DNA of 64,000 bases from Candidatus Spongiisociaceae bacterium (GTDB taxonomy: Bacteria > Actinomycetota > Acidimicrobiia > Spongiisociales > Spongiisociaceae). The stretch is from assembly GCA_965262915.1 (NCBI GenBank), contig OZ253564.1, positions 1,165,597 to 1,229,596 of the forward strand, in the 5' to 3' direction. The notes under the pieces were generated by a model. It made no database searches. It had not been told where the DNA came from and saw only the letters and a list, made by a program, of their open reading frames with translations. Positions 12,298-64,000 of this stretch are shown here, one piece after another; the stretch's first letter is position 1; the number at the start of each line of letters is the position of its first letter. The position numbers and the translations under genes were made by a program.

Positions 12298-12486
12298 TCA
12301 CGAGGGCCAGGACAGGATGACAGAAACCGCCAAGGCCAACCCACCGAGGAAGATGCCGGCAAGCCATTTGGTCTGGCGGAAGATGGTGCGTTCGACATCG
12401 CGCAACGCCTCGGATAGGTCGGTGCGTGCCTCTGCCTGACGTGCCTCGTCCTCCGCGTCTACCAGAGATTCGGTAACGGCTGCCAT
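12298..12486 (-). CDS. Small membrane-anchored hypothetical protein
   Basis: 62 aa with a charged N-terminal half and one C-terminal TM (WLAGIFLGGLALAVSVIL). AT-rich upstream region contains TATACT. Confidence 0.35.
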   Translation of the reverse strand: MAAVTESLVDAEDEARQAEARTDLSEALRDVERTIFRQTKWLAGIFLGGLALAVSVILSWPS

Positions 12487-12570
12487 GCGGACCCCCGGCT
12501 GTCAACGTCAGCTATCGTACTGTAGTTGAGTATAAGTGAGTTAATGTTAGCTGTCCACTCGCGTGGGCTT

Positions 12571-12677
12571 CTAGGAGGGTGGTGCAAAACCCCTTCACGG
12601 CGCGTCGACCGATGACATAATGCCTGTTCAGAGGAAGACGGGCCGTTGCTCCCCACCGTTTTAGACCACCCTTCTAG
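12571..12677. mobile_element. MITE family A, copy 1 (107 bp, TIR GGAGGGTGGT, TA flanks)
   Basis: Near-identical copies at 23971..24077 and, inverted, at 50550..50655. Terminal and internal (ACGGCCCGTC/GACGGGCCGT) inverted repeats. Confidence 0.85.
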
Positions 12678-12816
12678 ACCACATGCTTGCTCCGCCTCGC
12701 GACCTGAGCTTTCGGCGTAGCGGGTCCCGGCGGATCACTTTGCCGCGTCCTGCTGTCCGGATGCGAGTGGATCCGCGTCGAGGACTCCGGGGGCGCGTAT
12801 CCCCGTGTGCCGCGGG

Positions 12817-14358
12817 TCAAGAGGAGAAGCGCTCCCGCAGATCGCGTTTGAGCACCTTCATGCCGGCGTTGCGGGGGAGTACGTCGACCGTCTCGTAGCG
12901 GCGGGGGACCTTGTAGCGAGCGAGTTGCGAGCGGCACAGCTCATCCAGTTGGTCCACGGGGAGCGGTCCCTCCCCTCGTGTGACCACCACCGCGGTCACC
13001 TGCTCTCCCCACTTCTCCGACGGCAGCCCGATGACGGCAACATCCTGAACGGATGGGTGCCGCACAAGAACTTCCTCGACATCACGCGGATACACGTTGG
13101 CGCCTCCCGAGATGATCAGGTCCTTCTTGCGGTCGACGATGTAGTGGTAGTTCTCGTCGTCGACCATCGCCAGGTCACCGGCCGAGAAGAAGCCGTCCTC
13201 GGTGGTCGACTCGGCAGTGGCCTCGGGGTTCTTGTAGTACCCGTTCATCAGGTACGGGGATCTGGAGAAGAGTTCACCGATCTCGCCGGGCTGGACGGGG
13301 TTGCCATCCTCGTCGACGACGCGAACCTCGGTCATGAACCAGGCCGGCCCTACGCAGCGCTCCTTGCGCATGATGTCGGCCGGCCGCAGGTTCGTCACGA
13401 TGGCCGCCTCGGTCGATCCGTAGAGCTCGTGGAGACCGACATCGGGGAACATCCCGTGTACCCACTCCTTTAGCGCCTGGGGGAGGGGGGCGGCGTTGAA
13501 GTAGATGACCTCGAGAGAGGAGATGTCGAAGCTGCGGATAGCGTCCTCACCCAGGGAGCGGACCAGAGCGGCATGGGTCGGCACCAGGAAGACCGTGTGG
13601 GGCCGGTCCCGCTCGATAATCGAGAGCAGGCCGTCGGGACTGAAGGCTCGCAGCATCGAAACTGTCCCGCCGGTATGGACCGCCGCGTACGCAAACGCAA
13701 AACCTGCTCCGTGGTACATGGGAGCCACCGCGATGGTCGTCCTCCCCGGTCCGAGGCCCCATTCCAGGGCGGTCGCGTAGAAGGTCAGGGTCCTGGAACG
13801 GTGGCTGATGACCACTCCCTTGGGGTTGCCGGTTGTCCCGGAGGTATAGGCGATGGCGAACGGGTCGGTCTCCGCCACGCGGATCCTGGGATCGATGCTC
13901 CGGGCGTTCTCGAGAGCGTTCTCGTAGCTCCGCCCTGCCTCCTGACCTCCGATGGACAGGACGGTGGCCGGTTCGCGCGACTCGGTGGCGGCGGTGGCGT
14001 TACCGGCGAGCGAGTTTTCGAGGATGAGCGCCCTGGCGTCGGAGCGGTCGAAGATGAAGTCGACCTCCGGCGCAGGCGATTTGGGGTTGAGCGGGATCAT
14101 CACCATGCCCGCCTTGGCGATACCCGCCGCTACCTCGCAGTATTCGAGCCGGTTGCCGCTGAGGAACCCTACGTGGTCACCCGGATGGAGGCCGGCGGCG
14201 AGCAAGACGTTGGCGACACGGTTGGAACGGTCGTCGAGTTCTGCATACGTCTGCGTGCGGTCGCCGTCGATTACCGCCGTAGCGCCCGGTGTGGCGATCG
14301 CGAACTCACGGATGCCGTTGGCGATGTTGAGGTCTGCGCCTCGGGGAAGGATTGCCAT
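12817..14358 (-). CDS. Acyl-CoA synthetase (AMP-dependent synthetase/ligase)
   Basis: AMP-binding signature AYTSGTTGNPKGV. 513 aa. Confidence 0.9.
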   Translation of the reverse strand: MAILPRGADLNIANGIREFAIATPGATAVIDGDRTQTYAELDDRSNRVANVLLAAGLHPGDHVGFLSGNRLEYCEVAAGIAKAGMVMIPLNPKSPAPEVDFIFDRSDARALILENSLAGNATAATESREPATVLSIGGQEAGRSYENALENARSIDPRIRVAETDPFAIAYTSGTTGNPKGVVISHRSRTLTFYATALEWGLGPGRTTIAVAPMYHGAGFAFAYAAVHTGGTVSMLRAFSPDGLLSIIERDRPHTVFLVPTHAALVRSLGEDAIRSFDISSLEVIYFNAAPLPQALKEWVHGMFPDVGLHELYGSTEAAIVTNLRPADIMRKERCVGPAWFMTEVRVVDEDGNPVQPGEIGELFSRSPYLMNGYYKNPEATAESTTEDGFFSAGDLAMVDDENYHYIVDRKKDLIISGGANVYPRDVEEVLVRHPSVQDVAVIGLPSEKWGEQVTAVVVTRGEGPLPVDQLDELCRSQLARYKVPRRYETVDVLPRNAGMKVLKRDLRERFSS

Positions 14359-27257: not shown

Positions 27258-27548
27258 CTACGCGACTGTCGACAGACGTTCTACTTCAATGTGATGAGCG
27301 TTCCTTAGAGCCCGGGCGAGGTCGTAGGCTGCCTGGAGTCGGTACCACGTGTGGGCACCTCCACCGAATGCCTTGTCAAGCCGGATCGCCATCTCGGGCG
27401 AGATGCCCGAACGGCCATTGACCACATCCGATAGTTGTTTACGACTGACACCTAGCTTCTTCGCCGCTTCCGTCACGCTGAGCCCCAGCGGCTCCAAGCA
27501 GTCGTGACGGACGGAGAATCCAGGATGGGGCGGATCTTTCATCGGCAT
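27258..27548 (-). CDS. higA: HigA-family antitoxin (XRE-type HTH)
   Basis: [42 protein letters not shown] is the canonical HigA HTH. Lies directly downstream of higB. Confidence 0.85.
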
Positions 27549-27562
27549 TGTCGCGTCCTCCT

Positions 27563-27841
27563 TCAGTGGTAGTCGACCAAGTCCACTTCAGTCGCATGTC
27601 CCCCCTCGAACCGAAACACGATGCGCCAACCGCCGGACACGCTTACGGCCCAGTACCCGGCAAGGTCCCCTTTCAGCGGATGGAGGTGGAAGCCCGGCAG
27701 ATCCATGCTCCTGACAGCGGTTGCCTCATCGAGACGCGCCAAGATCCGCTCGATCTTGGCAACGTACGCTGGCGGTATGCGACGCCGATCCCCCTTTTCG
27801 TAGAGAAGCTTCAGGCCCTTGTGGCGGAATCGGATGATCAC
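27563..27841 (-). CDS. higB: HigB toxin (RelE/ParE superfamily, killer protein)
   Basis: [18 protein letters not shown]...[27 protein letters not shown] is a typical HigB. Confidence 0.85.
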
Positions 27842-33068: not shown

Positions 33069-34079
33069 TCAATGGAGTTGGGTGTAGCCGGGTACTTTTT
33101 CGTAGGGACTGTCCAGATAGACCTTTGCCTCGGGCGCGCCACTGAAACGACCGTGGCTCCACCGTACCTCTACATGGCCATCCACGCGGATAGCCGTACC
33201 CGAATACTTGTCGGTTAGCTCGGACCACCACCTGATCATTGGCTGCCCAGCGTTGAGGTCCGGGCGCACGTCTAAGGATCGGAAGGTGTAGCGGCGCCGG
33301 AAGTCCCATGGAGTGTCAACTCGGTAGCGCATCGGAAGCTTCGTAGACGCAGCACCCAAGATGAAGTAGGGTGCCGACTGCAGCCTCAGTAGCCGCCACA
33401 GAGTCTCCTCCCTGACCTTCTTACGTTTACCCAAGGCTTTTTGCCACCGCGCAGCAGAGGTCCGCGAAACGGCGATGCAAAACCGCTGGTACGGATCCAT
33501 GAGGGTCTCCGGCCAGTGTCGCTTGAACTCCTCTTTCAATCGAACGCGATCCTGCTTCGTCAGATCACCGACTGATCCTGGTAGATTCGCAGTACCCAAA
33601 TAACTCCGGCACGCTCGGTAGAGATCCTGGTACTCGGCCGGGGCCACCTCGGAGTACCAATTCACCGGTGGCCCGTGGCGTGCGGCGAGCAACCGGACGA
33701 AGAGGTGAGAAGGTGATGCGTTATACAAGACCTTCGACATGTATTTGCAGCTCACCAGGTAGACATAGTCCACCCGGAGATCGGCAGGTACCTGCTCGTA
33801 ACCCGGGGCCTTGTGACTCCCCTTCCATTCCACGCGGAGCGGTTTTCGGTTGCGGAGGCCTTCGGACGAAGAAGCGAACATTTCGCCGTTGTTCCAAGCA
33901 CTGCTGAACAGCCGCCCGTGCTTCCCCGCTTCTCTGGCTCGTGCTAGACGATCAAAGTTCTCAGCGGTTACGTTCAGGATCTCAGCCGGACCGGTGAGCA
34001 GTGCTGTGTCCAGGGACTCGACCCCGAGCATGCCCAACCCTGTAACGATCTCGGTCAGTTCAGTCCGGAGGCTGGGCAT
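33069..34079 (-). CDS. Putative type II restriction endonuclease
   Basis: 336 aa, 40 nt downstream of the methyltransferase. Visibly lower GC. Possible PD...(S/E)xK-like segment PADLRVDYVYLVSCK. No other recognisable domain. Confidence 0.45.
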   Translation of the reverse strand: MPSLRTELTEIVTGLGMLGVESLDTALLTGPAEILNVTAENFDRLARAREAGKHGRLFSSAWNNGEMFASSSEGLRNRKPLRVEWKGSHKAPGYEQVPADLRVDYVYLVSCKYMSKVLYNASPSHLFVRLLAARHGPPVNWYSEVAPAEYQDLYRACRSYLGTANLPGSVGDLTKQDRVRLKEEFKRHWPETLMDPYQRFCIAVSRTSAARWQKALGKRKKVREETLWRLLRLQSAPYFILGAASTKLPMRYRVDTPWDFRRRYTFRSLDVRPDLNAGQPMIRWWSELTDKYSGTAIRVDGHVEVRWSHGRFSGAPEAKVYLDSPYEKVPGYTQLH

Positions 34080-34119
34080 CGATGCTGGACTGTCTCAATC
34101 TCCGAAGGTCACGCGTCAC

Positions 34120-35094
34120 TTAGGGCCGCTGGCCAGCGAGACCTATCTCTTGACTGGTGCCCCCGGAGTCATCGAGATTGGCGATACGGGCTCTGGCTAG
34201 CTTCACGTAGTCGGGATCGATGTCATAACCAACGGCGCGGCGGTTGGCCGCCTTGGCCGCCACCAGGGTAGTTCCCGAGCCCATGAACGGATCTAGGACC
34301 AGGTCTCGCTCATAGGTGTAGAGCTGGATAAGGCGCGCCGGTAGCTCAACCGGGAATGGTGCCGGATGGCCGATCCTGCTGGCGTGGGCGGGGGGGATAT
34401 CCCAGATGTCGATCGTTGCCTCCATGAACTCGTCGCGGCCGATGGTCGACTCGTACGGCATCTCGTCGGCTCTACGCTGGGCAGCAGTACGGGCTCGGTT
34501 GAAGCGGCCCTTTCCGGCCACGATGATGCGTTCGGTAACGTCTCGCAGAACAGGGTTGGCCGGGCTGCGCCATGATCCCCATGCACATGAGCCGCCCGCG
34601 GCCTTGGCCTTTCTCCAGATGATCTCGCCGCGCAGGAGCAGCCCGAGTTGGTCTTGGAGTATGCCGATCACATCCGCGCTCAAGCTACGGTATGGCTTGC
34701 GGCCGAGGTTGGCGACGTTAATGGCCATCCGACCGCCTGGTTCGAGCACCCGCACGCACTCCCGGAACACGCCGCTCAGCAGCGCCAAGTATTCCACATA
34801 GGATTCGGGCACCTGCCGACCTGCTACTGCCTGCTCGTACACCTTCCCTACGAAGTAGGGCGGTGAGGTAACTACGAGGGCGACGCAGTTGTCGGGCAGC
34901 GCAGCCATCTCCCGACTGTCACCGTGGATCGGTCGAGGCTCGTCGAAACCCTCGGCGACCTTGACGCGATCGTCGCTCGAGAGTTCCGGTGGAGGGAAAC
35001 GGGCGTAGAACGCAGACGCGTCGTGGCCCTCGCGGCGGCCCGATCCGAAACTAGAGGTAGCTGTACTCCGGCGCGTTTGCCGTGCATGATCCAC
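34120..35094 (-). CDS. Beta-class DNA methyltransferase (N4-cytosine/N6-adenine; the SPPY motif favours m4C)
   Basis: Motif IV TSPPY precedes motif I DPFMGSGTT. GTG start after AAGGAGGAGG. Confidence 0.88.
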   Translation of the reverse strand: MDHARQTRRSTATSSFGSGRREGHDASAFYARFPPPELSSDDRVKVAEGFDEPRPIHGDSREMAALPDNCVALVVTSPPYFVGKVYEQAVAGRQVPESYVEYLALLSGVFRECVRVLEPGGRMAINVANLGRKPYRSLSADVIGILQDQLGLLLRGEIIWRKAKAAGGSCAWGSWRSPANPVLRDVTERIIVAGKGRFNRARTAAQRRADEMPYESTIGRDEFMEATIDIWDIPPAHASRIGHPAPFPVELPARLIQLYTYERDLVLDPFMGSGTTLVAAKAANRRAVGYDIDPDYVKLARARIANLDDSGGTSQEIGLAGQRP

Positions 35095-36163: not shown

Positions 36164-37731
36164 TTACGTGGGCACCCGGGTGTTCAGTTCGTATCCCAGG
36201 GCGGTGGCGGTGATGACCTCCCGGCCGGATGCCCCCACCATCTCGCCGACGGCCAGCGCCATGGCCGAGATGGGCGCGAACATGTGAACTCCCCTTCCCT
36301 GCTCCTCGAAGTCGGAGTCCGACGCCATCTGAGAGTTGATTCCTGCTGCGAGCCCCGCGCCGACCCGCCCGCCGTCGCCCACGATGGTCGCCTGGGGGGT
36401 TCCGCCCAACCACCTTCCCAGGGCGGCGAACGGCCGGTCGACGATGTCATAGCTGAAAAACGTGATGGCCAGGTTGTCGAGGGTGGCGCGTTTGATGGTC
36501 TCGACGGATTCCCGCGGTATGTCCTCGAACAGGTCGGGCCGTTCGATGGCCAGCTGCAGGCCGAGTACCGCACCCGTGTGGTACCCGTACACGTCGTAGT
36601 CGTCGTGACCCTCGGCATCGCAGACGTCGGCCACCAACCGGGCGAGGTCCGCCAGTCGGGCTCTCCGGGGACCGGCGCCGAGTCCCCGTTGCCCGGTGTG
36701 TCGAGCGAGAGGGTGGGCCGACCGGTTCCCATCGCCGTCATGAGCGGTTCGAGGCCGGCGCTCGATCCGGGCGGTGAGGCCTGCAGGAGGAGCAGGGGTC
36801 TCCCGTGCCCGGGACTGCGCCGTACCAGCATCTGGCCGACCGAAGTCGACACGTATCCGCGCCGGACAGCGCCCGGCGCCGGGGTAGCGGCACGAGGTGG
36901 GGGAGCATCGGCTAGCCGGGACCCCGCCAGAAAGGAGCGGATGAGCCCGACCAACTCGCCCCGGTCGCCGGTCCGGTGGATCCTGACCTCCGTGTTGGAG
37001 GCCGGTTCCGGCAACCGCTCAATGTGGCCGGCGAGGGGATCGTCGGGACCGACGGTGATCATGGTCGGCATGGTCAGACCGGCGAGGGCCCCGGCGGGTT
37101 CGTACCGGAAGGAGGCGTGGTACAGCTGCCACCAGAGCGGGCCCGCCCGCAACATGTCGACCACCTTGTCGTGGAGCACCTCCGCGGAGGGCATGTCGAC
37201 CCTGCGCCGGGCCTCCGGAGTCCGCCGGTACCAGGGCCAGAACAAGAGCATGTCGCGCCGGATCGCCCACGCCCTCACCAGATGGGATCCGTCCCAGCGG
37301 GGTTCCAGAGAGGGCGTGTAGTTGGCCAGCAGGTCAGTTCGCTCATCCTGGGTGTAGGTGCCCAGGGCGTTGAGGACTAAGCGATCGACGCGCTCCGGAT
37401 GGCGATAGGCGAAGTCCAGGGCCAGCGTGGCCCCCGTGTGCGATCCGTACAGGTCGACCCGCTCGAGCCGGAGCCAATCGAGGGTCTCTCCGAGAGCATC
37501 GGAGTAGTCGGCGCACGCCGGCGCGGAGAGCCCGAGACCCGCCGACTCGCCGGCTCCCGGCGCGTCGAGGGCGATCACCGTCCGGTCAGCGGCAAGGTCA
37601 GCCATCAGGGGCTCGAGAGCAAGCGAACTACCGGGGGCGGGATGGAGGAGGACCAGCGCCGGACCACGGCCCGCCCGCCGGTAATGGACCTCCCTGCTGC
37701 CCACGTACCCGAAATGCTTGAGCGTCGTCAC
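36164..37731 (-). pseudogene. Chimeric locus: alpha/beta hydrolase, then a second partial alpha/beta hydrolase (frameshift near 36652), fused to an MmgE/PrpD N-terminal fragment
   Basis: GTG 37731 after GGGAGGAG. First domain ...LYGSHTGATLAL... Second domain restarts at RRGYVSTSVGQMLVRRSPGHGRPLLLLQASP. The alternative frame gives LADLARLVADVCDAEGHDDYDVYGYHTGAV and then PrpD-like TLDNLAITFF...GYELNTRV. Confidence 0.55.
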
Positions 37732-37976: not shown

Positions 37977-38076
37977 GGGGAATGCTGAAAAACGGGTAAT
38001 TGGTTGGCCTTCCGTCCGCTGACCTGGGAATTTGTCATCGACCGTCGGGCTAACCGGGGGTCTTGCAGCACTTTCC
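37977..38076. mobile_element. MITE family B, copy 2 (100 bp, TIR GGGGAATGCTGAAAAAC, TA flanks)
   Basis: TA-GGGGAATGCTGAAAAACGGG...CTTGCAGCACTTTCC-TA. Shares GCTGAAAAAC with 27113..27233. The right TA forms part of the carboxypeptidase stop codon. Confidence 0.55.
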
Positions 38077-39560
38077 TAGGATGCTCGTTGTGCGGATGTC
38101 GCCGGTGTGAAGGTGATGGCCGTGAACTCCTCGAACCCGTAGTCGAGCAGTACGGACACATCGCGGTAGTGTTCGTCGGAGCCGAGCACTACCGCGTATA
38201 GCCGTCTCCCGTCCCGTTCGGCGGCTGCCACCATGGTGAGAACCGCACGATTGGTAAAGCCGGTCTTGATGCCGATGGCCCCCCGGTACTGGTCCAGCAG
38301 CTTGTTGCGGTTCCTGCTCGCTCGCTCCTGACCGTCCGGGGCGGCCGGGAGGAAGATCCTTGGCGCCGCCACGATCCGGGCAAACCCCTCATCGGCCATG
38401 GCGGCCAGGGACAGCGTCAGCAGGTCGCGGGCCGAGCTGTAGTGGTCCCGGTGATCGAGACCGTGGGGATTGACGAAGTTCGAGTTCTCCAGGCCGAGGT
38501 TGCCGGCCTTGGCGTTCATCAGGGCAGCGAATCCTTCCACCGATCCGCCCACGTGTTCGGCCAGCGCCACCGCGGCATCGTTGGCGCTCCGAATTAGCAG
38601 CGCTGCCAGCAGTTCCTCGACCGTCCAGGGGTCCTCGTGGGGGATCAGGCCGATCTCCGACTCCCCCGCAAGGGTGGCCTCCTCGGAGATCTGCACCCTG
38701 TCGTCGAGTTCCGACTCCCCGAGCACCACGAGTGCGGTCACTATCTTGGTGGTGGATGCGATCGCCCGCCGGACATCGGCCTTGTATCCGGCAAGGACCT
38801 GCCCGAAGGTATCGTCGTAGAGAATCCACGCCCGGGCGGACACCTTGGGGGGCGGCGGAGCGACCAGCCCACCGTCCGCGAGCACCAGGAAGGTCCTCTC
38901 CAGGGGTATGTCGCGGGCCCGGTGGAGGAACGTGGCCATCTGTCCCCGCGTCACGTCGGTCCCCGGGCAATACCGGGACGGTCGGGTGTCACAGCCCACC
39001 GTGATACCGGCCGTCGCCAACGAGTTGATGTTGCCGGAGTGGACGTTGCCCTCGACGTCGGTGAATCCGGCATCCTCGGCCCCTGCCCGCAGCCGGTAGG
39101 CCCTGCTGAGGAAGCTTGCCATCTGTGCCCGCGTCACGGTTTCGTAAGGGCAGTAGCGGGCGGGTTCGGTCTTGCAACCCTTGGTGACACCGACAGTCGC
39201 GATGCGGGTCACGTACGGCGCCCACCACTCGCCATCGCGCACATCGGCGAAAGGAGAGGATCCTGCCGACCCGATATCGCCATCCGCCCCGATCGCGCGG
39301 GCGAGCCACACGGCCATCACCCAACGCTGGACCGGTTCATAGGGACAGAAGAGCCGGACGCCGTCCTCGCCGCATTCCGTACCTTCCAGGATTCCATCGG
39401 CTTCCAAGGTCTCGATGGCCGGTGCGTGAAGGTTCCCGTCGTCGATGTCTCCGAAACCGCTCGCCCCGGCTACGGTCGTCAGCCCGGCAACCAGCCAGAG
39501 CAGCAAAGCCGCCACCGAGATCTCGCGGCGAATCAGTGGCTTACCGAACTTCCTGGACAC
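38076..39560 (-). CDS. D-alanyl-D-alanine carboxypeptidase (peptidase S11) with three N-terminal SLH-like repeats
   Basis: SxxK (ASTTKIV), SxN (RSANDAA) and KTG (KTGFT) motifs. Three repeats of the type F.D(V/I)....H...I..L...G(I/V)T.GC....YCP...VTR.QMA.FL.RA. Confidence 0.85.
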   Translation of the reverse strand: MSRKFGKPLIRREISVAALLLWLVAGLTTVAGASGFGDIDDGNLHAPAIETLEADGILEGTECGEDGVRLFCPYEPVQRWVMAVWLARAIGADGDIGSAGSSPFADVRDGEWWAPYVTRIATVGVTKGCKTEPARYCPYETVTRAQMASFLSRAYRLRAGAEDAGFTDVEGNVHSGNINSLATAGITVGCDTRPSRYCPGTDVTRGQMATFLHRARDIPLERTFLVLADGGLVAPPPPKVSARAWILYDDTFGQVLAGYKADVRRAIASTTKIVTALVVLGESELDDRVQISEEATLAGESEIGLIPHEDPWTVEELLAALLIRSANDAAVALAEHVGGSVEGFAALMNAKAGNLGLENSNFVNPHGLDHRDHYSSARDLLTLSLAAMADEGFARIVAAPRIFLPAAPDGQERASRNRNKLLDQYRGAIGIKTGFTNRAVLTMVAAAERDGRRLYAVVLGSDEHYRDVSVLLDYGFEEFTAITFTPATSAQRAS

Positions 39561-39739
39561 TTGCCTTCCTCCCCGGGTACCGGGTTACGCCATGCATCTC
39601 CGCCGAGCGAACCGAGCGTTCCGTCCCTCGTTGACACCAATCGAAGGTCCACACGGGTACCTCCGCCGCGATTTCCACTATCGAGAGCTTCATCGGGCTA
39701 CGTGATGCCGGATCGCGATCCCCGGTCCGCGGGCCGCTG

Positions 39740-42112
39740 TCAACTACGGCGCGCCTGGGAGGTGCGTGTCGAGGCAGCGGTCTCATGGAGCGCCGGCGCA
39801 ACCTTTCTGAATAGCCGCCAAGCGCCGTCGACATCGAGGAGTCGGGCGCCTGCAGACTCGTACGAGAGCGTCTTGTCGAGCACCCAGTCCCATTTGTCTA
39901 TCTCCCGATTCTCGATCACCGCAGCCAACCCGGCGGTCGTAGGAGGTGGGTTCTCTAGGAACTGACCGATCACCTCTGCTACCTCGTCGGGGCCGGTCCC
40001 GCATATCCGGATGGCGGGGCCTTCGACGCCCACTTTGATTCCTGCCTGATGCAGGGCGATCATCGCGGTATACAGGGCGCGATCGCCGGTCCATGGAAAC
40101 AGCAGGACATCCCCGCCATCCCGGACCACGGTTCGCTTGCCCAGCCGGAATTGCTTGAACGCGGCCCGACCCTCGGCGAGCAGGTCCCTCGCGCCGGCGT
40201 CGAGCCATGTCGGGGTTTCGGTCGACGCGTAGACGGCCAGCATCTCCGCCCGAACCTCATTCGACACCGCGGGACCATGGCTGCCGGAGAAGAGGGGGGC
40301 GCCGCCAGTGGATTGTTCGAGCTCGACCACCCGGGCCGGTTTGTCGATGCCTGTCACCTTCCAGCGCTTCCCGGCGAAGATCATCAGCATCCCTTCCCGG
40401 AGGGGCTGGTAGATGGGGATCGTACCCAGAGTCCTACCACCGGTCACGACCCGCCATTCGTCGGCAGTGTGGAACGCGACATAGAAGCGGTAGTGGTTGA
40501 CGTGGCGTTCGCCGACCACCCCGTGCAGCAGCTGCCCGTCGGAGGATTGGATCAGAAGATCGTGGGACGCCATGGCTCGGAGCAACCGGACGAACCGAGC
40601 CTGGTCGACGAGGTGGAAGGGACCCGGCCCGCACAGGGCGCGATACAGGTCGGCCGCCCTCGCTCCGCCGTGCTGGGCGATGGTCGACATGATCTGCTGG
40701 ATCAGCGTCGAGTAATTGAATCCGGGATCGTCGGCGGATTCGAGCCACCTCTGGAGCATGAGGCGCACCATGGCGGTCGTCTGCACGACCCCGCAGCGCA
40801 GCCGGTCGACCGGGAGGGACCGCTCGTCGAGGGATGGTTCGCTGATGTAGAGGCGCAGCAGGGCCGGGTCGTCGCGGCGGCCCGATCTCCCCAGCCGCTG
40901 CCAGAGGGATGCGACCGATGGCGGCGGGCCTATCTGAGCCACGCTCGTTACCGAGCCGATGTCGATTCCCAGCTCGAGCGTGGACGTGCTCACCGCGGTC
41001 GCCGGTCGGGTTCGGTCCTTCATCTGCGCTTCGGCCGCCTCGCGCAGTTCCTTGGACAGGTTGCCGTGATGCGGCCAGAACTCGTTGGGGACCCGCTCCC
41101 GGTCACTTCGACGGGCGAGCAGGTCGGCGTAGGTCTCCACGTGATTGCGCGTGTTGGCGAACACCAGGTTGTCCTGGCCGCGCAGATGCCTGAACAGGTG
41201 CTCGGCTATCTCTGTCGCGTCCCCGTTCACCGTCTCTTCGACAGCTACTTCGCGGCCGGCCCGCTCGGCGTTTTCGGCCTGGTGGGGTGATACCGGTGGC
41301 GGGGTGGCCACGTACCCGCGCAGCTGCAGCATCAACCCCCGGCCGTCCGACTTCGACTCAACTATCAGGACCTGCTCCGGGTCGGTCGGGCGGAGAAACG
41401 CGGTGGCCTGATTCATGTCGCCGAGGGTTGCCGACAGCCCGATACGGGGTGGTCGTAGGCGGACCGCCAGCTCGACACGGTTCATCAGCGACTGCAGTTG
41501 GACTCCCCGTTGCGTGGCCAGGAAGGAGTGGAGCTCGTCGATCACGATGTAGCGCAACCCGACGAACAGCCTCGGCACGAGGGAGCCCCGGTTGACGAAG
41601 GTCGACTCCAAAGACTCGGGAGTTATGAGCAGTACACCGGACGGTCGGGCTATCAGGCTCTGCTTCGCCGCCGCCGAGACGTCCCCGTGCCAGCGATGCA
41701 CGGGGACATCCACCCGTTCGCAGATCCGTTCCAGGCGTTGATACTGATCGTTGATCAGGGCCTTCAGCGGCGAAAGGTACAGAGCCTGCACCCCGACGGA
41801 GGGTCCGGTCGCCGGTTCCGCCCACGGGTCGTAGGCCGTCCACGGATCTCGTTCCCCCGATGTCGGCTGGTCGGTGGCGCCGGCAAGGGTCGACAGGATA
41901 GGGAGGAAGGCGGCTTCGGTCTTTCCGGAGGCGGTCGCCGCGGCGATGATCAAATCACGGTCACCGTCAATGATCGGACCGATGGCGCGCTCCTGGGCGT
42001 CGTGCAGCGAGGTCCACCCCTGGTCGTATATCCAGCGCTGTATCCGAGGATGCAGCCGGGTGAACGCCGACGACGGGGCAGCTTCAGAGACGGAAGTGGG
42101 TGAGATGGTCAT
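39740..42112 (-). CDS. Lhr-like DEAD/DEAH-box helicase (third gene of the TerB-ATPase-helicase cassette; Shango SngC-like)
   Basis: Motif I AATASGKTEAAFLP, motif II VIDELHSF, motif III SATLG, long C-terminal extension. Start uncertain (ATG 42112 or GTG 42157); both overlap the upstream gene end. Confidence 0.85.
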   Translation of the reverse strand: MTISPTSVSEAAPSSAFTRLHPRIQRWIYDQGWTSLHDAQERAIGPIIDGDRDLIIAAATASGKTEAAFLPILSTLAGATDQPTSGERDPWTAYDPWAEPATGPSVGVQALYLSPLKALINDQYQRLERICERVDVPVHRWHGDVSAAAKQSLIARPSGVLLITPESLESTFVNRGSLVPRLFVGLRYIVIDELHSFLATQRGVQLQSLMNRVELAVRLRPPRIGLSATLGDMNQATAFLRPTDPEQVLIVESKSDGRGLMLQLRGYVATPPPVSPHQAENAERAGREVAVEETVNGDATEIAEHLFRHLRGQDNLVFANTRNHVETYADLLARRSDRERVPNEFWPHHGNLSKELREAAEAQMKDRTRPATAVSTSTLELGIDIGSVTSVAQIGPPPSVASLWQRLGRSGRRDDPALLRLYISEPSLDERSLPVDRLRCGVVQTTAMVRLMLQRWLESADDPGFNYSTLIQQIMSTIAQHGGARAADLYRALCGPGPFHLVDQARFVRLLRAMASHDLLIQSSDGQLLHGVVGERHVNHYRFYVAFHTADEWRVVTGGRTLGTIPIYQPLREGMLMIFAGKRWKVTGIDKPARVVELEQSTGGAPLFSGSHGPAVSNEVRAEMLAVYASTETPTWLDAGARDLLAEGRAAFKQFRLGKRTVVRDGGDVLLFPWTGDRALYTAMIALHQAGIKVGVEGPAIRICGTGPDEVAEVIGQFLENPPPTTAGLAAVIENREIDKWDWVLDKTLSYESAGARLLDVDGAWRLFRKVAPALHETAASTRTSQARRS

Positions 42113-43439
42113 CGTCGGGTGCTGGTCTCGGGATGGACGGCGGGGCGCCGTTGCCACTCTTGAGCGGTGCGAGGTCCGGATTGGTCTCCGCTTCGATCTC
42201 GACCCGGTCGATCAGATCGGACCAGTTCACGCCGGGGTTCTGGGCGAGCACCGAGAGGAGGTTCACGAACTCCTTGATGGTGGTCCGCGGTGTGCGGAAG
42301 TAGGCGTCACCCACACGCGACGCGCAATGGTCCATGAAGGCGGGCAAGGCTTCGTCGGGTACGAGGTAGGCGTCCGGATCGCCGCTCGCGAACACGTGCC
42401 GGAGTTTGGTGAGCAGCACGTAAATATCCTCGGGGGACAGGTTGGCGAGGCGCAATACCGGACCGGAGAAGTCAACGAGCCCCTTACGGGCGAAAGTGTT
42501 CTCGGCAAGACGTGACTGCAGGGCCGGGTACGAGTAGAGGCCGCGCCGGGTGTCTAACAGCATGTCCGGAGTGCCGCCGAACACGAACCCGAGCCCGGCA
42601 GCCGAACCCTGCAGGCAGTCGTTGAGGATGCGAAGCACCTGTTCGTAGTTGGAGTTGCGGGCCCTGGTATGCGACATCTTGTACAGATTCACCATCTCGT
42701 CCAGGCAGACGAGGAGGCCTGAGAACCCGGCCAGACGGACGAACCGCGCGAACAGCTTGAGATGGTCGTAGAAGCTCCGGTCGTCGATGATGGTGCGCAC
42801 TCCGAGCGCTTGCCGTGAGTCGGTGCGGGTCGAGAACTCGCCGCGTAGCCAGCGCACCACATCGGAGCGCAGTTGTTCGTTGCCGTTGTCATGGGCGCGC
42901 CAGTAGGCGGCGATTACTTCGGCGAAGTCGTATCCGCCGACCATCTCCTGGAGATCGGCAAGCCGTTCACGGATTACCGTCTCCGGGCTGATGTCTCGGG
43001 AGCGGGCGGCGCTCAGACCGGCCGTGATGAACCGTTCCACCACCGACGGCATCGCGCCGCCCTCCGGCTTCGCTCGCGTCGACAGGTTGCGCATCAGCTC
43101 GGCGTACAGACCGCGCGCCTGACCGCCGGTCGCGTAGAGGCGGCGTTCGGGTGACAGGTCGGCGTGGACGGTGACGAGCTTTCGTTCGAGCGCGATTGAA
43201 CGGACCAGGTTCAGGAAGAAGGACTTTCCGGCCCCGTACTCGCCGATCACGAGACGGATCGCCGAACCGCTGTCGGCGATCCGGTCGATGTCAGCGACCA
43301 CAGCGGCCACTTCGTCGGCGCGTCCGACCTGGATGTGTTGCTGGCCGACCCGTGGTACGACGCCGGCCCGCAAGGACTGGATGATCGCGTCGCGGTCCCG
43401 CGGGCGGATACGGCCGGTGGGACGGGTTAGGGATGTCAA
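42084..43439 (-). CDS. P-loop ATPase of the DUF2791/BREX BrxC-D-like type (Shango SngB-like)
   Basis: Walker A GEYGAGKSFF and Walker B-like LLVCLDEM. 4-nt overlap with the TerB gene stop. Confidence 0.75.
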   Translation of the reverse strand: MTSLTRPTGRIRPRDRDAIIQSLRAGVVPRVGQQHIQVGRADEVAAVVADIDRIADSGSAIRLVIGEYGAGKSFFLNLVRSIALERKLVTVHADLSPERRLYATGGQARGLYAELMRNLSTRAKPEGGAMPSVVERFITAGLSAARSRDISPETVIRERLADLQEMVGGYDFAEVIAAYWRAHDNGNEQLRSDVVRWLRGEFSTRTDSRQALGVRTIIDDRSFYDHLKLFARFVRLAGFSGLLVCLDEMVNLYKMSHTRARNSNYEQVLRILNDCLQGSAAGLGFVFGGTPDMLLDTRRGLYSYPALQSRLAENTFARKGLVDFSGPVLRLANLSPEDIYVLLTKLRHVFASGDPDAYLVPDEALPAFMDHCASRVGDAYFRTPRTTIKEFVNLLSVLAQNPGVNWSDLIDRVEIEAETNPDLAPLKSGNGAPPSIPRPAPDDDHLTHFRL

Positions 43440-45685
43440 GTCAGTTCCTCCACAGCGTAGGCATTGAGTACCACAGGGTTGTCACCCTCTACAAGAGGTT
43501 CGCCGCAGGCTTCCATTGCGGCTTCGTTGATCACGTCGATAGCGCCGTCGAGGAACGGCAATCCGAACGAATCGGCCATCTCCTCGGCGAAGCGGCGCTC
43601 CCACTCCGATCGGGAGGCGAGGGCCGCAAGGAGCCGCGAATGCGGCCCGTCAAGACCCTCGATCATCGATCTGGGTTCCGAGCCGGGCGTACGGGATTCC
43701 GTCTCCGGTGGTGGGTCGTCGTCTACGAAGATGTCGGTCAGCAGGTTCGACACACGGTCCGTCTCGGCCAGACGGGCTTGGATCTTTGCAGGGTCCAGGG
43801 CTACGGGACGGCGCCGCGCGGCAATCGTGCCGGGGTTGGGAAGTTCCCAACCAGTGTTGGGCGCCCCCTCTCGAACGGTGACCGGGCCGGTATCCCCCAG
43901 GTCGAGAGTATGGGCGCGGCTATACAGGTGGGATTCGTCGAGGCCCATATGTTCGAACAACCTTTCCAGGACGGCGATCTCTTTGTGATTGACGACCCCG
44001 TCGGCGGCTGCAAGCTCGATCAGAAGACTTCCGACTTTCGGCAGATCGTCGGGTTCCATCGCCTTTATCTTGCGTTTGATGCCGTACATACGGGGTTTTC
44101 GCACACCGAGCAATGCCAAGTGCGCTTGCAGCCTGGCCCGATCGGCGGTATCAAGCCCGGTGATCCCTTCCAATCGTTCAGCGAGAAACCGGTGTTCGAA
44201 GGAGTTGATCTTCCCGTCCGCTGCGGCCACTATCGCACTCAGATACACCAGCGACAGGGCGGCGCCGTACAAAGTGGGTTTCGCCCGCCCACCCTCGGGA
44301 AGCGAGAACAACACCGCATGCGTACCCGGACTTGGAGTAGGCGCACCGAAACGGACGTCGGGTTCGATTCCCACCTCGACGTTGGCGAGCATGGACGCCA
44401 GAGCAGAGGCGTCGGTCTTGGTGAGTTTCGAGGTGTGGCCGGGTGACCACATTTCCACCAGTTCATCGAGGAAAACCACCGCCCGCGGCCTACCGGCCAG
44501 TTGTTCCGATGTCCAGGCCCGGAGACCCTTGAGGATCGGACCACCGTGCTCGACAAGCAACACGTCGGGTAACAGCCCGACCGCGGCCGGGGTCCCGACC
44601 CAATCAGGGTGGCGCCCGATCAAGCGGCTGTAGGCATCGAGTTCATTGTCGCATTGCTTGGCCAACTCGTTCAGCTCGGTGATCAGCGCCGGTTCGAGCG
44701 TTACGTCAGGAATCCTGTCGAGGGTGATGAACACGCCTCCGTCGAATCCGGAGGATGTGGCCCGGTACGAGAGCCTGATCTTCCTCGCCGGTCGTGGCAC
44801 CCGGAGACCCGGTCCGAACCGCGCCCTGTAACGTATGCCGAACAGTTCGTCGAACTCGGCGGCAGCGCGCTTGGCCGGTGTTCGTAGCCGCCCCTCGGGA
44901 TGGTGCCGGAGGTAACTGAGGGCCCATTCGGCCGGGATGGCGGACCGTTCCGAAACATACTTGCCGATGCAGACTCGAACCGCGGCCGGTACGCCGAGCT
45001 TTGCGCGACCGGAATCCCATGGGACCGGTTGTGCGTCAGTGTTCACCGACAGCACGCCTTCCACGAAATCCAGCAGTTGACCCGCGCTCCCAGCGAATGA
45101 ATGCTCCTCGCGGTAGATGCCTAGGAGACGTTCGATCTCGGCCAGGATGATCGCGACCTCCGGAAGGTGGAGGTCGGCGCCAAGGTCGGCGAACAGACGC
45201 CGTTCGAGCCCGTAGAAGAACAAGAACACGTAACCGATGTAGGCGGACCTGTCCTGGCGACCCCCGGCCAGCCACTTGAGATAGGCGGCCCGAACGCGCG
45301 GGTTGGCTCGTCCGTACGACGGGTCGTGATGCATGGAAGCTCCGGTGCGATCCGCGCTTTTCCAGTTGACCGGAAGCCGAGGATCGATGAGGCTTGGCTC
45401 GGGTCCGCGTCCGTTCGCCGCCAGGGCGCCGTTGCCGATGTAGACCATCCCGCCTTCGATCGAACGGCCGGCCACGTCGATCTTCCCACCGGGTGGGACC
45501 CAGGTTGCCGGACCTCGCTTGGATCGCTTCCCTGACCACCGAAGCGGGCCGCTGTCCCACCAGTAAGGCGTCGGCGGGCCGCGCTTCGTGTTCCGTTCGG
45601 GACGGTTTGTCCCACGCTCGGGCCGGCTCACAACCCCCCTTTCAGGTACCGCCTGTCGGCTAGAGGGGAAGTGCCCGATCGGCAT
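43436..45685 (-). CDS. TerB-N / TerB / TerB-C domain protein (Shango SngA-like)
   Basis: N-terminal WVPPGGKIDVAGRSIEGGMVYIGNG...EPSLIDPRLPV (TerB-N-like). Central AIVAAADGKINSFEHRFL (TerB-like). C-terminal LDGPHSRLLAAL...FLDGAIDVINEAA (TerB-C-like). Start at ATG 45685 or 45706; the ORF-track start at 46087 overlaps vapBC and is rejected. Confidence 0.75.
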   Translation of the reverse strand: MPIGHFPSSRQAVPERGVVSRPERGTNRPERNTKRGPPTPYWWDSGPLRWSGKRSKRGPATWVPPGGKIDVAGRSIEGGMVYIGNGALAANGRGPEPSLIDPRLPVNWKSADRTGASMHHDPSYGRANPRVRAAYLKWLAGGRQDRSAYIGYVFLFFYGLERRLFADLGADLHLPEVAIILAEIERLLGIYREEHSFAGSAGQLLDFVEGVLSVNTDAQPVPWDSGRAKLGVPAAVRVCIGKYVSERSAIPAEWALSYLRHHPEGRLRTPAKRAAAEFDELFGIRYRARFGPGLRVPRPARKIRLSYRATSSGFDGGVFITLDRIPDVTLEPALITELNELAKQCDNELDAYSRLIGRHPDWVGTPAAVGLLPDVLLVEHGGPILKGLRAWTSEQLAGRPRAVVFLDELVEMWSPGHTSKLTKTDASALASMLANVEVGIEPDVRFGAPTPSPGTHAVLFSLPEGGRAKPTLYGAALSLVYLSAIVAAADGKINSFEHRFLAERLEGITGLDTADRARLQAHLALLGVRKPRMYGIKRKIKAMEPDDLPKVGSLLIELAAADGVVNHKEIAVLERLFEHMGLDESHLYSRAHTLDLGDTGPVTVREGAPNTGWELPNPGTIAARRRPVALDPAKIQARLAETDRVSNLLTDIFVDDDPPPETESRTPGSEPRSMIEGLDGPHSRLLAALASRSEWERRFAEEMADSFGLPFLDGAIDVINEAAMEACGEPLVEGDNPVVLNAYAVEELT

Positions 45686-45753
45686 GCCGCCGTGACAACC
45701 GACCATTATGGTACAAATCCGATGACTCTGAAGCCTTGGTGTATACTGAACCA

Positions 45754-45978
45754 ATGCGGCGTATACAGCTATACATGGACGATGACCTCGATGAAGCGCT
45801 ATCCGGCGAGGCGGCTCGTCTGGGCGTCTCCCGTTCGGAGCTCGTGCGAGACGCAGTGAGGGTCTCGCTACGCGGCTTTCTCGACGCTGATCGCGATGCG
45901 GTCGACGATCTGATCGGCTGGATCGACGTGGAGCCGGACGACGATATCGATTCGGTGGTCTACGGGCTCGAAGAGTGA
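45754..45978 (+). CDS. vapB: Ribbon-helix-helix (CopG/VapB-type) antitoxin
   Basis: MRRIQLYMDDDLDEALSGEAARLGVSRSELVRDAV is an RHH fold pattern. GTGA overlap with vapC. TATACT -10-like hexamer upstream. Confidence 0.75.
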   Translation: MRRIQLYMDDDLDEALSGEAARLGVSRSELVRDAVRVSLRGFLDADRDAVDDLIGWIDVEPDDDIDSVVYGLEE

Positions 45979-46376
45979 GGTTCGCCGATACATCGTTCTG
46001 GGTCGGCCTCCAAGTCGCGCGAGACCGCCGACATGCCGACGCAGTCGAGCTATGGCAGCGTGATCGCAGGCCCGTGCGGACTTCCAACCTCGTCCTCGGC
46101 GAGACATGGACGTGGCTACGGCGAAGAGCCGGTCACCCGGCAGCCGTGCGCTTTCTGGAAACGCTCGCGCAGTCCAGGCGCGTATCGGTGGTGACAGTGG
46201 ACGAGACCATAGATCAGCAGGCGTGGGTATGGCTTCGCCGCCACGACGAGCGGAAGTACTCGTATGTGGATGCCACGAGCTTCGCGATCATGCGCCGCGA
46301 GCGCATCACCGAAGCGTTGGCGTTCGACGGTGATTTCACCGCGGCGGGCTTCGTCGAGGCCCGACCTCACCGATGA
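45975..46376 (+). CDS. vapC: PIN-domain toxin VapC
   Basis: FADTSFWV...NLVLGETW...YVDATSFAIM...ALAFDGDF carries the conserved acidic PIN residues. Confidence 0.85.
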   Translation: MRFADTSFWVGLQVARDRRHADAVELWQRDRRPVRTSNLVLGETWTWLRRRAGHPAAVRFLETLAQSRRVSVVTVDETIDQQAWVWLRRHDERKYSYVDATSFAIMRRERITEALAFDGDFTAAGFVEARPHR

Positions 46377-46383
46377 TCTTCCC

Positions 46384-47205
46384 GTGACCGGCCTTACCCG
46401 GGAGATCGCTCGTTGGATCGAGTCGGTCGATCCGGGGACGATCGACGACGATACCCGGGCGGTCGTGTCCGGTTTGGTAGCCCGCGTGCTGAACGCGACC
46501 GCCGGGTCGGAGGGTGACGGGCGACAGGGTCCGACTCGCCTCGGTCTCGATCCCGTGGTTGACGCCCACTCATTCGCTGCCGGCCTGCGCGCCGAAACCC
46601 TTTCGGAACAGCAGGCGGGTCTCAGGGAGCTCGCCGCTCCGGTCGCCAGAGCGGCGCTGGCGATAGCGGTTCACCACCCATGCTCCGGTGCATCGCTGGG
46701 CGCCGCGGTCCTGGCCGGCTGCGAGCTGGGCCTGCTGCTGGCCGAGATGGCGGGCGCTGGTAGTGACTCTCGATTTCGTGCCTCGGCGGCGACATGTGCA
46801 GCTATCTCGGCTGCTCGGGTCCTTGATCTCAGCGGCGATCGGCTCGTCTGGGCGATCGGTATCGGGGCCAGCAGTTCGGTCGGTGCCGCCTATGTCCTAG
46901 ATGCTGCTTGGCAGGCCGGGAAGTCGGCGTCCAACGGAGTGCTGGCTGCCCTCCTCGCCGATGCAGACTTCACCGGTCCCGCCGACGCCATCGAACATCC
47001 CCGGGGTCTTCTCGGCGCGGTGTTCGATATGCGTGCGCCGGTTGGTACAGCAGGGGATCTGGGCAACCGGATAGGTGCAATCGAACCCCTGATCTCCTCG
47101 GCAGGAACTGCCGACGGTTTCGGGGACAAGGCGGCCGGGATGTGGGAGATGGAAAGGGCTTCCGATCTGGTTGCCGCAGTGTTTCCCGACCGGAGGTCGC
47201 GTTGA
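46384..47205 (+). CDS. Short MmgE/PrpD-related protein
   Basis: GTG 46384. About 273 aa with PrpD N-domain-like pattern. Stop overlaps the TTG start of the next gene. Confidence 0.5.
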   Translation: MTGLTREIARWIESVDPGTIDDDTRAVVSGLVARVLNATAGSEGDGRQGPTRLGLDPVVDAHSFAAGLRAETLSEQQAGLRELAAPVARAALAIAVHHPCSGASLGAAVLAGCELGLLLAEMAGAGSDSRFRASAATCAAISAARVLDLSGDRLVWAIGIGASSSVGAAYVLDAAWQAGKSASNGVLAALLADADFTGPADAIEHPRGLLGAVFDMRAPVGTAGDLGNRIGAIEPLISSAGTADGFGDKAAGMWEMERASDLVAAVFPDRRSR

Positions 47206-48536
47206 TCGGGACCGCGGTTCTCCCACGGTTGGCAGGCTTTGCGCTCGGTCCCCTCGATCTGCCCGATGAGGTAGCGCACGCCGGTCGCCGGACCGTTCTC
47301 AATGCGCTGGCGCTGGCGGTCGGTGCCGCCCGGCATCCTGCTGTCGATGCGGCTTGCGAGGTGGTTTCGCGCCTGACCCGGCGCCCTGAAGCATCGATCC
47401 CCGGCCGGTCCGCCCGGGTGGAGGCGGAGTGGGCGGCTTTCGTAGGAGGCATAGCGGTCCACGCCGAGGACTACGACGACACCCACCTGGGCACCGTCGT
47501 GCATCCGGGCGCCCCGGTCGTTCCTGCCGCCCTAGCCGCTGCCGAGTTGTACAGGAGCAGCGGACGCGAACTGCTGGAGGCTGTGGTGGTCGGGGTGGAG
47601 GTTGCATGCCGGGTGGGCCTGGGTCTCGGGCCGGGTCACTTCGACCGCGGATGGCACCTCACGGGGTCGACCGGCCGGTACGGCGCCGCCGCTGCGGCCG
47701 CCCGCCTGGCCGGGTTGGACGAGGCCACGCTGGCCGGGGTGTGGGCCCGCTCTGCAGCCGAGACGGCCGGGGTCCAGGCGGCCTTCGGCACCATGACCAA
47801 GCCGTACCATCCCGGCAAGGCTGCCTACGACGGGATCCTGGCGGTACAGGACACCGTGGACGGGCGCCGGCCTGCTCCGATGACCGCGGAGGAGGAGACG
47901 AACATGTTCCATGCGCTGGGTCCCGACCCGGATCCCCCGAAGGTCACTACCGGCCTGTGCGAACAGTGGGAGACCGCGCTGAACACATTCAAACCGTATG
48001 CCTGCGGGATCGTCAGCCATCCGGTCATAGATGCGGCGGTCGAAGCCCGGACCCGTATCGGGGGCCGGATCAACCGGATCACGGTTACCGTCAATCCCAT
48101 CGTGCTCGACGTGATGGGTGTCGAAGAGCCAGCCCACGGCCTGGAGTCGAAGTTCAGCGTCTACCACTGCGCGGCTATCGGTCTCCTCGACGGGGTCGGA
48201 GGGCCGGCCCAGTTCTCCGACGAGCGGGTCAACTCCCCGGACACGACCGCGCTGCGCCGCAAGGTCGAGGTGATCACCGATCCGAGCATGGCCCGGGATG
48301 CGGCCCGCCTGGTAGCGGATACGGCGGACGGGCGGCGGGTCGAAGTGAGGATCGACCACGCCAGGGGGAGCGCGGCGCGACCCATGACCGACGAGGATCT
48401 CGCCTTCAAGGCCCGTGACTCGATGCAGCCCGTCATCGGTGATGCCGCCGACGATCTCATCGACATGGCCTACTCCATCGAAGCTCACGAAGTACGGGAC
48501 ATCATGCAGGTGGCCGCCTCAGGGGCTGGGATGTGA
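47202..48536 (+). CDS. MmgE/PrpD family protein (2-methylcitrate dehydratase-like)
   Basis: TTG 47202 after GGAGG. AVHAEDYDDTH...HPGAPVVPAALAAAE...GVEVACRVG are typical PrpD family segments. Confidence 0.85.
   Translation: MIGTAVLPRLAGFALGPLDLPDEVAHAGRRTVLNALALAVGAARHPAVDAACEVVSRLTRRPEASIPGRSARVEAEWAAFVGGIAVHAEDYDDTHLGTVVHPGAPVVPAALAAAELYRSSGRELLEAVVVGVEVACRVGLGLGPGHFDRGWHLTGSTGRYGAAAAAARLAGLDEATLAGVWARSAAETAGVQAAFGTMTKPYHPGKAAYDGILAVQDTVDGRRPAPMTAEEETNMFHALGPDPDPPKVTTGLCEQWETALNTFKPYACGIVSHPVIDAAVEARTRIGGRINRITVTVNPIVLDVMGVEEPAHGLESKFSVYHCAAIGLLDGVGGPAQFSDERVNSPDTTALRRKVEVITDPSMARDAARLVADTADGRRVEVRIDHARGSAARPMTDEDLAFKARDSMQPVIGDAADDLIDMAYSIEAHEVRDIMQVAASGAGM

Positions 48537-62989: not shown

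Positions 62990-64000
<1,011 letters not shown>

Follow-up and report, generated by a model that had tools for sequence, protein, structure and literature searches.

Shango protects Escherichia coli and Pseudomonas aeruginosa from phages (PMC10250203; bioRxiv 10.1101/2022.05.11.491447). Here we describe a cassette of three genes, sngA, sngB and sngC, which lies in a DNA stretch of 64,000 nt (assembly GCA_965262915.1, contig OZ253564.1, positions 1,165,597-1,229,596, forward strand; hereafter the window) with a guanine-plus-cytosine (GC) content of about 65%. An earlier reading of this DNA, called here the original prediction, had proposed a Shango-type triad, and had stated that this triad was shown by experiment in other bacteria to be Shango and that its mechanism is unknown. 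Both statements agree with the literature, in which the validation is in the two species named above; a search of the accessible papers up to 2026 gave none on the mechanism. On the grounds of sequence comparison we consider it very likely that the cassette is a complete, functional-looking Shango anti-phage system, carried as a chromosomal accessory cassette by a sponge-associated member of the Acidimicrobiia.

The ATPase and the helicase of Shango are also to be seen against the BREX (bacteriophage exclusion) type 2 system. A comparative study of 2026 (PMC12839542) describes BrxD as an ORC/Cdc6-type AAA+ ATPase and BrxHI as a superfamily 2 (SF2) helicase with a winged helix-turn-helix (wHTH), a beta-barrel and an Lhr-like C-terminal domain; their genes form a tightly linked dyad, and BrxD is proposed to load or activate BrxHI on DNA. 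In a phylogeny of helicases, SngC was grouped with BrxHI, DruE and DpdJ (PMC12278908).

Three coupled genes and their match to Shango

Three long open reading frames (ORFs), all on the minus strand, were listed at 43436-46087, 42084-43439 and 39740-42157. Public gene calls were taken from four metagenome contigs with 99.8-100% nucleotide identity to the window, and all four carry the same trio, called at 43436-45706 (756 aa), 42084-43439 (451 aa) and 39740-42112 (790 aa). Our annotation is as follows:

43436 to 45631, minus strand: sngA, 731 aa from the preferred GTG start, putative scaffold or sensor protein with TerB_N, TerB and TerB_C domains (Pfam, PADLOC)
42084 to 43439, minus strand: sngB, 451 aa, TTG start, BrxD-like (ORC/Cdc6-type AAA+) P-loop ATPase
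39740 to 42112, minus strand: sngC, 790 aa, ATG start, Lhr/BrxHI-like SF2 helicase; a longer version of 805 aa from GTG 42157 is possible

The three genes are adjacent and co-directional, with one promoter-like site upstream, and their order and operon-like coupling are those of a Shango operon. The original prediction had them joined by overlapping stop and start codons. This is right for sngA and sngB, which share 4 nt (ACTTGA), the sngB TTG having a Shine-Dalgarno (SD) sequence GGAGGA 5 nt upstream of it, but not for sngB and sngC, whose overlap of 29 nt is more than that of a stop and a start codon. A perfect 12-nt palindrome, GGATCGCGATCC, stands at 39710-39721, 19 nt past the sngC stop codon. 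It could form the stem of a terminator that has no U-tract, or else be bound by a protein.

For each of the three products the best match in PADLOC is the corresponding Shango model, nearly over its full length, as the proposal of a Shango-type triad had implied. The SngA model is the sole PADLOC match of the first protein (E 1.1e-76, model positions 30-523 of 528), the second protein matches the SngB model at 2.4e-181 (about 602 bits, precisely 601.6; positions 5-425 of 439), and the third matches the SngC model at 8.5e-265 (879 bits; positions 3-718 of 720). The hidden Markov model searches suggested as a check by the original prediction recovered in Pfam the TerB_N, TerB and TerB_C domains that it had read in SngA, as well as the ATPase family, BrxC_BrxD (PF10923, the former DUF2791; 7.5e-154), in SngB, so that its claim stands on this point. 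SngC is hit by DEAD (7.7e-29) and Helicase_C (6.4e-16). In NCBIfam, no equivalog scored above its cut-off for the cassette proteins.

The motifs of both enzymes are intact. In SngB the P-loop GEYGAGKSFF that had been pointed out earlier is found as a Walker A motif GEYGAGKS followed by FF (residue 66), with a Walker B motif LVCLDE at residue 243. SngC bears motif I (AATASGKT), Ia (PLKAL), II (DELH, residue 192), III (SAT), V (TSTLELGID) and VI (QRLGRSGR), and is, as had been noticed, a DELH helicase with a long C-terminal extension, here about 350 aa; the alignment with TIGR04121 reaches residue 643 in the 805-aa version. The nearest solved structures to SngC are those of Lhr (5v9x, 7lhl) and MrfA (6znp). 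SngB and SngC are homologues of the BrxD-BrxHI pair of BREX type 2. Directly after sngC, a gene of the PD-(D/E)XK nuclease family is present in the Phaeobacter plasmid CP104101 (L051:11544-13977), and a gene with an RNase_T domain in another record (L057, 13799-15439).

The ratio of nonsynonymous to synonymous substitution rates (dN/dS) against the two relatives L047 and L049 was 0.14 for SngB, 0.22-0.40 for SngC and 0.37-0.48 for SngA, which indicates that all three genes are under purifying selection. SngA evolves fastest of the three, as expected for a sensor-like component. The SngA family comprises 3,777 clusters at 50% identity (E<=1e-3), and the features by which PADLOC and DefenseFinder recognise Shango, namely the SngA, SngB and SngC families, their operon and their accessory distribution, are all found in this locus. 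Hence the cassette lacks none of the defining features and counts as an ordinary member of a widespread defence family.

SngA: start codon, domains and tandem paralogues

The features of sngA and of its upstream region are listed below, all on the minus strand:

45705 to 45732, minus strand: promoter-like site TTCAGA-16 nt-CATAAT, the sole sigma-70-like match on this strand within 39400-46000
45634 to 45643, minus strand: Shine-Dalgarno sequence GAAAGGGGGG, ending 2 nt before GTG 45631
45509 to 45631, minus strand: basic, Trp/Pro-rich leader of SngA, 41 aa, SRPERGTNRPERNTKRGPPTPYWWDSGPLRWSGKRSKRGP, predicted disordered
44873 to 45496, minus strand: TerB_N domain (PF13208, 5.6e-46, residues 71-278, full model 1-207)
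44258 to 44872, minus strand: central alpha/beta region between the Pfam matches, without a Pfam family, with a confident AlphaFold2 fold
43928 to 44257, minus strand: TerB domain (PF05099, 8.5e-12, residues 484-593), with two AADG motifs at residues 470 and 542 of the 731-aa product
43442 to 43822, minus strand: TerB_C domain (PF15615, 1.6e-18, residues 629-755), the most conserved part between the tandem paralogues of sister genomes

The start of sngA is most likely GTG 45631, giving the 731-aa product, since the -10 hexamer of the promoter-like site overlaps the publicly annotated ATG 45706, the motif CTGAAAGGGGGGTT(G/A)TG with its SD sequence is common to the window, L047, L048 and L049, and in-frame stop codons stand upstream of this motif in L048 and L049. 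The element CCATAATG is kept upstream of sngA in L047, there before both paralogues, and in L048. ATG 45685 (749 aa) was at first favoured, because that version begins with 'MPIGHF' and so resembles the MGIGxLF N-termini of cousins; it was dropped in view of the stops in frame there in L048 and L049 and of the conserved SD and GTG/ATG motif. The putative 5' untranslated region of sngA shows no excess of folding stability over shuffled sequence (z = -0.4), and Rfam gave zero matches in 38000-47000.

From GTG 45631 the leader before TerB_N is about 41 aa. The basic, Pro/Arg-rich leader of the original prediction is thus real, although shorter than the 60 aa or so given there; it holds 11 Lys and Arg, 3 Asp and Glu, 7 Pro and 3 Trp. 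In an AlphaFold2 model of the 749-aa version from ATG 45685 (76 homologues; mean predicted local distance difference test score, pLDDT, 82.6; predicted template-modelling score, pTM, 0.67), the leader falls inside residues 1-57, all with pLDDT <50. Orthologues have the common pattern MSRP...PYWWD...W.G(K/R)R.KRGP, and the paralogous A2 clade described below starts with MSRPK followed by a run of Lys, Arg and Gln. We infer that this Trp/Arg-rich leader may bind the membrane or nucleic acid.

For the rest of the protein, the model, in the numbering of the 749-aa version, predicts a TerB_N region that is rich in beta structure towards its N-terminus and helical after that, a confident alpha/beta centre at about 300-470, a TerB helical bundle at 473-591, a flexible linker, and a C-terminal module (TerB_C) of helix-helix-helix-hairpin-helix, which appears winged-helix-like. 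In TerB, the aspartate of each AADG motif shows little or no variation among the 76 homologues. Foldseek against the PDB returned the TerB-fold structures 2h5n and 2ou3 only, both weak (best E 0.076), with zero neighbours for TerB_N, the central region and TerB_C, and a sequence search of the PDB gave zero matches at E<=0.01 for SngA and SngB.

The segment preceding TerB_N was then surveyed in 150 diverse SngA representatives. A hydrophobic helix of transmembrane (TM) length, as a rule spanning residues 1-25 with a basic stretch after it, precedes TerB_N in 76 of them, as in the SngA of a Klebsiella plasmid (MELLKFLAAIFVIYLLFFRKKKRK), and the SngA of Phaeobacter and Arthrobacter plasmids have two TM helices each (TM-bearing plasmid sngA examples: L050:5743-8052; L051:5530-8058; L052:5071-8142). 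Another 15 begin with an MGL(R/L)D(L/K)F-type start and then a Pro-rich linker, and in 41 the leader is of another kind, mostly with positive charge. No leader could be scored in the other 18, of which 15 have <12 residues ahead of TerB_N, perhaps because the start was called too late, and 3 are 5'-truncated. The TM helix in about half of the representatives (76 of the 150) supports a membrane-tethered scaffold, and the SngA body would thus usually be anchored to the membrane on its cytoplasmic side. We did not find a description of an N-terminal TM anchor of SngA in the Shango literature consulted.

Three sister genomes (L047, L055 and L056) carry, at the same chromosomal site as the window, the four genes sngA1-sngA2-sngB-sngC; the tandem sngA regions are L047:10001-14574, L055:8001-12566 and L056:8001-12778. 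A1 is 75-89% identical to the SngA of the window and A2 about 52%, while A1 and A2 are about 52% identical to each other, with 34-66% over most of their length and 72-90% in the TerB_C tail, which suggests gene conversion or a common docking partner. At the DNA level, the sngA of the window is 92-100% identical to A1 of L047 over most of the aligned 3' portion. Its final ~170 nt (43436-43610) are closer to A2 (L047, L056) than to A1, with identities of 0.85, 0.78 and 0.90 to A2 versus 0.78, 0.67 and 0.72 to A1, and it has the A2-type end ...GAGGAACTGACTTGACATCCC, which overlaps sngB. The three-gene cassette of the window is most readily understood as the four-gene form collapsed by recombination, whereby A1 would have been fused to the tail of A2.

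These comparisons led us to a tentative idea, which we think rather less likely than not, that the clade normally uses a two-sensor Shango, in which two divergent SngA proteins with near-identical TerB_C tails would dock to one SngB-SngC pair, the form of the window being a collapse of it. Together with the TM anchor in about half of the SngA representatives, it would present Shango as a modular, membrane-sited sensor platform. If true, the two SngA sensors would give exchangeable specificities in the Shango of this clade of sponge-associated Acidimicrobiia, and the N-terminal tether together with TerB_N and the central region would be the variable, phage-facing parts of SngA.

The chromosomal site and its neighbours

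As the original prediction had placed it, the cassette lies between a cell-wall carboxypeptidase gene and a vapBC pair. Its flanks and the other toxin-antitoxin (TA) and restriction-modification (R-M) genes nearby are these:

38076 to 39560, minus strand: Peptidase_S11 gene (PF00768; D-Ala-D-Ala carboxypeptidase-like), right edge of the variable segment
45754 to 46376, plus strand: vapB (ribbon-helix-helix, RHH) and vapC (PIN), Pfam on public calls, divergent from sngA, left edge of the variable segment
34120 to 35094, minus strand: type II N6/N4 DNA methyltransferase (MTase; PADLOC MTase_II, 3.3e-87)
27258 to 27841, minus strand: HigB-like toxin (PF05015, 5.7e-17) and HTH_3 antitoxin-like partner (Pfam)

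The Peptidase_S11 gene is syntenic in L005, L047 and L056, and the relatives of its product are found in metagenome-assembled genomes of sponge-associated Acidimicrobiia, including Candidatus Spongiisociaceae and the bins RHO1 and APA. In the closest other species (L005), whose flanks have 79-86% nucleotide identity to those of the window, about 390 bp stand where the window has the 6.4-kb Shango segment. Synteny there runs from MmgE/PrpD through vapC-vapB on one side, homology ending just past the GTATAC operator-like repeats at the vapB start, and restarts within the carboxypeptidase gene on the other. Aligned for a possible Shango remnant, the left flank of L005 scored no higher than shuffled sequence, so that the difference may be due to an insertion or to a deletion. 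A different relative (L049) has sngABC, with 70-88% amino acid identity, at a different locus among PIN/RHH and HEPN/NTase pairs. The synteny check that had been called for thus shows that the three genes are not conserved housekeeping neighbours: from the empty syntenic site in L005 and the different location in L049 it follows that the cassette is accessory, with presence/absence polymorphism at this site among relatives.

A further relative (L048) has a lone sngA followed by a transposase of the IS110 family (10001-13861), which looks like a degraded Shango. The island around this sngA also holds HEPN/NTase, a DNA methylase, a HATPase_c_3 protein, Fic and AbiEii.

Beyond these relatives, SngA homologues occur on 681 plasmid records, 541 of them conjugative plasmids; they are mostly conjugative plasmids of Klebsiella and Salmonella, and there are also Roseobacter-group, rhizobial, actinobacterial and haloarchaeal ones. 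On a plasmid of Halocatena salina (L053:1-11673), sngABC directly follows BREX-5 genes, namely pglZ and a gene for a helicase-related protein. Homologues of SngB were found in 0 of 50,697 phage records, and no credible direct or inverted repeats flank the cassette.

The original prediction had spoken of a region rich in TA and R-M genes. The HigB/HTH pair, vapBC and the type II MTase bear this out, except that metabolic genes, some of them fragmentary, are interspersed around the cassette. An ORF of 336 aa with zero Pfam or PADLOC matches adjoins the MTase gene (the pair spans 33069-35094, minus strand) and is a candidate restriction endonuclease of unrecognised type. Pieces of MmgE/PrpD flank the cassette, namely an N-terminal fragment of 157 aa at 36164-36637 (minus strand) and genes of 273 aa at 46384-47205 and 444 aa at 47202-48536 (both plus strand); their presence on both sides hints at a past rearrangement of the region. 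A transposase HTH fragment lies near position 63000. Three GTATA(C/G) repeats, conserved in L005, surround the vapB start codon (45737-45775) and are probably the VapB operator; with the promoter-like site of sngA about 20 nt away from them, vapBC and Shango may share a regulatory region.

Proposed mechanism, alternatives and relation to known systems

The mechanism that we propose is tentative as a whole, with rather low confidence in its steps. SngA would be a cytoplasmic scaffold or sensor at the inner face of the membrane, where phage DNA enters, tethered by the N-terminal TM helix in about half of the family, with the disordered, Trp/Arg-rich leader (+8) in its place in the window. Perception of the infection cue, for example an ion or envelope perturbation, would involve TerB_N, the central region and TerB, with the four-helix module of TerB and its two acidic AADG motifs reporting it. 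The TerB_C tail would dock the SngB-SngC pair, a role suggested by the homogenisation of this region between tandem paralogues that share a single pair. SngB would then load or activate SngC, a putative 3'-5' SF2 translocase of the Lhr/BrxHI type, on incoming or replicating phage DNA, and ATP-driven translocation, unwinding or remodelling by SngC may block phage replication.

Several points weigh against the reading of the cassette as a functional Shango of this kind. No effector domain, be it a nuclease or a toxin, is recognisable in its three proteins, which fits the modest protection given by Shango homologues, 10-100 fold in efficiency of plating. The nuclease genes after sngC in the Phaeobacter plasmid and in L057 could be effectors, and the window is without such a gene; with a nuclease appended in some relatives, the three genes may not always suffice. 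The SngA of the window has no TM helix, its sole hydrophobic stretch being the first TerB helix, and for its leader nucleic acid is as likely a binding partner as the membrane. In GC content the cassette matches the genome, so that composition gives no sign of recent transfer. Finally, phage resistance is argued here by analogy with the homologues of E. coli and P. aeruginosa, no actinobacterial Shango being among the experimental cases.

Other explanations of the locus have also been weighed. A housekeeping module for stress response or DNA repair, be it a Ter-type one for envelope or metal stress or an operon around an Lhr-type repair helicase, might be thought of, as the TerB domain was first described from tellurite-resistance operons, the closest solved relatives of SngC are the repair helicases Lhr and MrfA, and a cell-wall carboxypeptidase gene is a neighbour. 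However, the syntenic site of the closest species is without the cassette, which sits elsewhere in another relative, and the family is common on conjugative plasmids and beside TA, R-M and insertion sequence (IS) genes. Among the genes called in the 10 kb to each side, the Ter operon partners TerC, TerD, TerZ, TerA and TerE are absent. Nor does SngC qualify as an Lhr or ligase-associated DEXH helicase, for it scores 201.6 bits against TIGR04121 (Lhr-like; cut-off 850) and 113 bits against NF007284 (Lhr; cut-off 1496), and no repair-partner gene is adjacent to sngC. As phage defence has moreover been shown for homologues, we hold a housekeeping role to be very unlikely. Less likely still, in our judgement, is a decaying, non-functional Shango, kept by drift alone after losing its membrane anchor and one of two SngA paralogues. 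The four-gene form in sister genomes, the appearance of the window sngA as an A1/A2 recombinant, the missing TM helix and the clearly degraded locus in L048 would all suit it; on the other hand, every reading frame and motif is intact, dN/dS is <0.5 for all three sng genes, the proteins are 99.6-100% identical across four independent assemblies, and the single-sngA cassette of L049 is equally intact.

The least probable of these explanations, and one to which we give hardly any credit, is that the ATPase-helicase pair belongs to BREX type 2 (Pgl-like) as a remnant or satellite, that is, a BrxD-BrxHI pair with the TerB protein as an unrelated neighbour. SngB does match BrxD, which is its PADLOC runner-up (3.5e-45, 153 bits; NCBIfam NF033438 1.3e-43, 150 bits), and SngC likewise matches BrxHI (3.6e-113, 377 bits); BrxD-BrxHI is a known linked dyad, and Shango adjoins BREX-5 genes in the Halocatena plasmid. 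These scores are nevertheless far under those of the Shango models, and the NCBIfam score of BrxD compares with a cut-off of 350 bits. The 64-kb window has no ORF of the size of PglX, PglZ, BrxC or PglW, its largest non-Shango ORFs being <= ~560 aa, and none of the BREX type 2 core families (brxC/pglY, pglX, pglZ, pglW) is among the Pfam tags within 10 kb on either side. The TerB protein, in turn, hardly looks like an unrelated neighbour, with sngA translationally coupled to sngB through the 4-nt overlap and the A-B-C trio recurring across phyla and in archaea.

Read as Shango, the locus adds an intact system from an uncultured, host-associated actinobacterial lineage. Useful as well are the corrected start of sngA and the natural series that one chromosomal site gives, with an empty, a three-gene and a four-gene state, the last with a duplicated sngA. 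The pattern of N-terminal anchors and the homogenisation of TerB_C provide testable handles on where Shango acts and on which domain docks the ATPase-helicase pair.

Regarding known systems, the resemblances outside Shango are partial. The pairing of an ORC/Cdc6-type AAA+ ATPase with an Lhr-like SF2 helicase, tight and with overlapping frames, is like that of BrxD-BrxHI in BREX type 2 (PMC12839542), whereas the pair of the window is coupled to a TerB scaffold and comes without PglX, PglZ, BrxC and PglW. With Bunzi (BnzA) and Dionysus (DinB) the locus has in common a TerB domain, proposed to be amphitropic and to serve membrane surveillance; these systems, unlike Shango, pair TerB with membrane or pore-forming effectors, and they have no ATPase-helicase pair, TerB_N or TerB_C. 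SngC agrees with Lhr and MrfA (YprA) (PDB 5v9x, 7lhl, 6znp) in the DExH core and, in part, in the post-core region, but it is far below the Lhr equivalog thresholds, lacks an MPE-type partner and is accessory rather than core. The closest likeness is to the Shango of E. coli and P. aeruginosa PA14 (Millman et al. 2022; Johnson et al. 2023, PMC10250203), which has the same three families in the same order, and known Shango likewise has an accessory location in a defence or TA neighbourhood. The locus differs from known Shango in its host, an uncultured sponge-associated member of the Acidimicrobiia, and from the copies on enterobacterial plasmids in its SngA, which is only ~30% identical to theirs; a basic Trp/Arg-rich leader stands where the SngA of Klebsiella has an N-terminal TM helix, and the sister genomes hold a four-gene form with two sngA paralogues.

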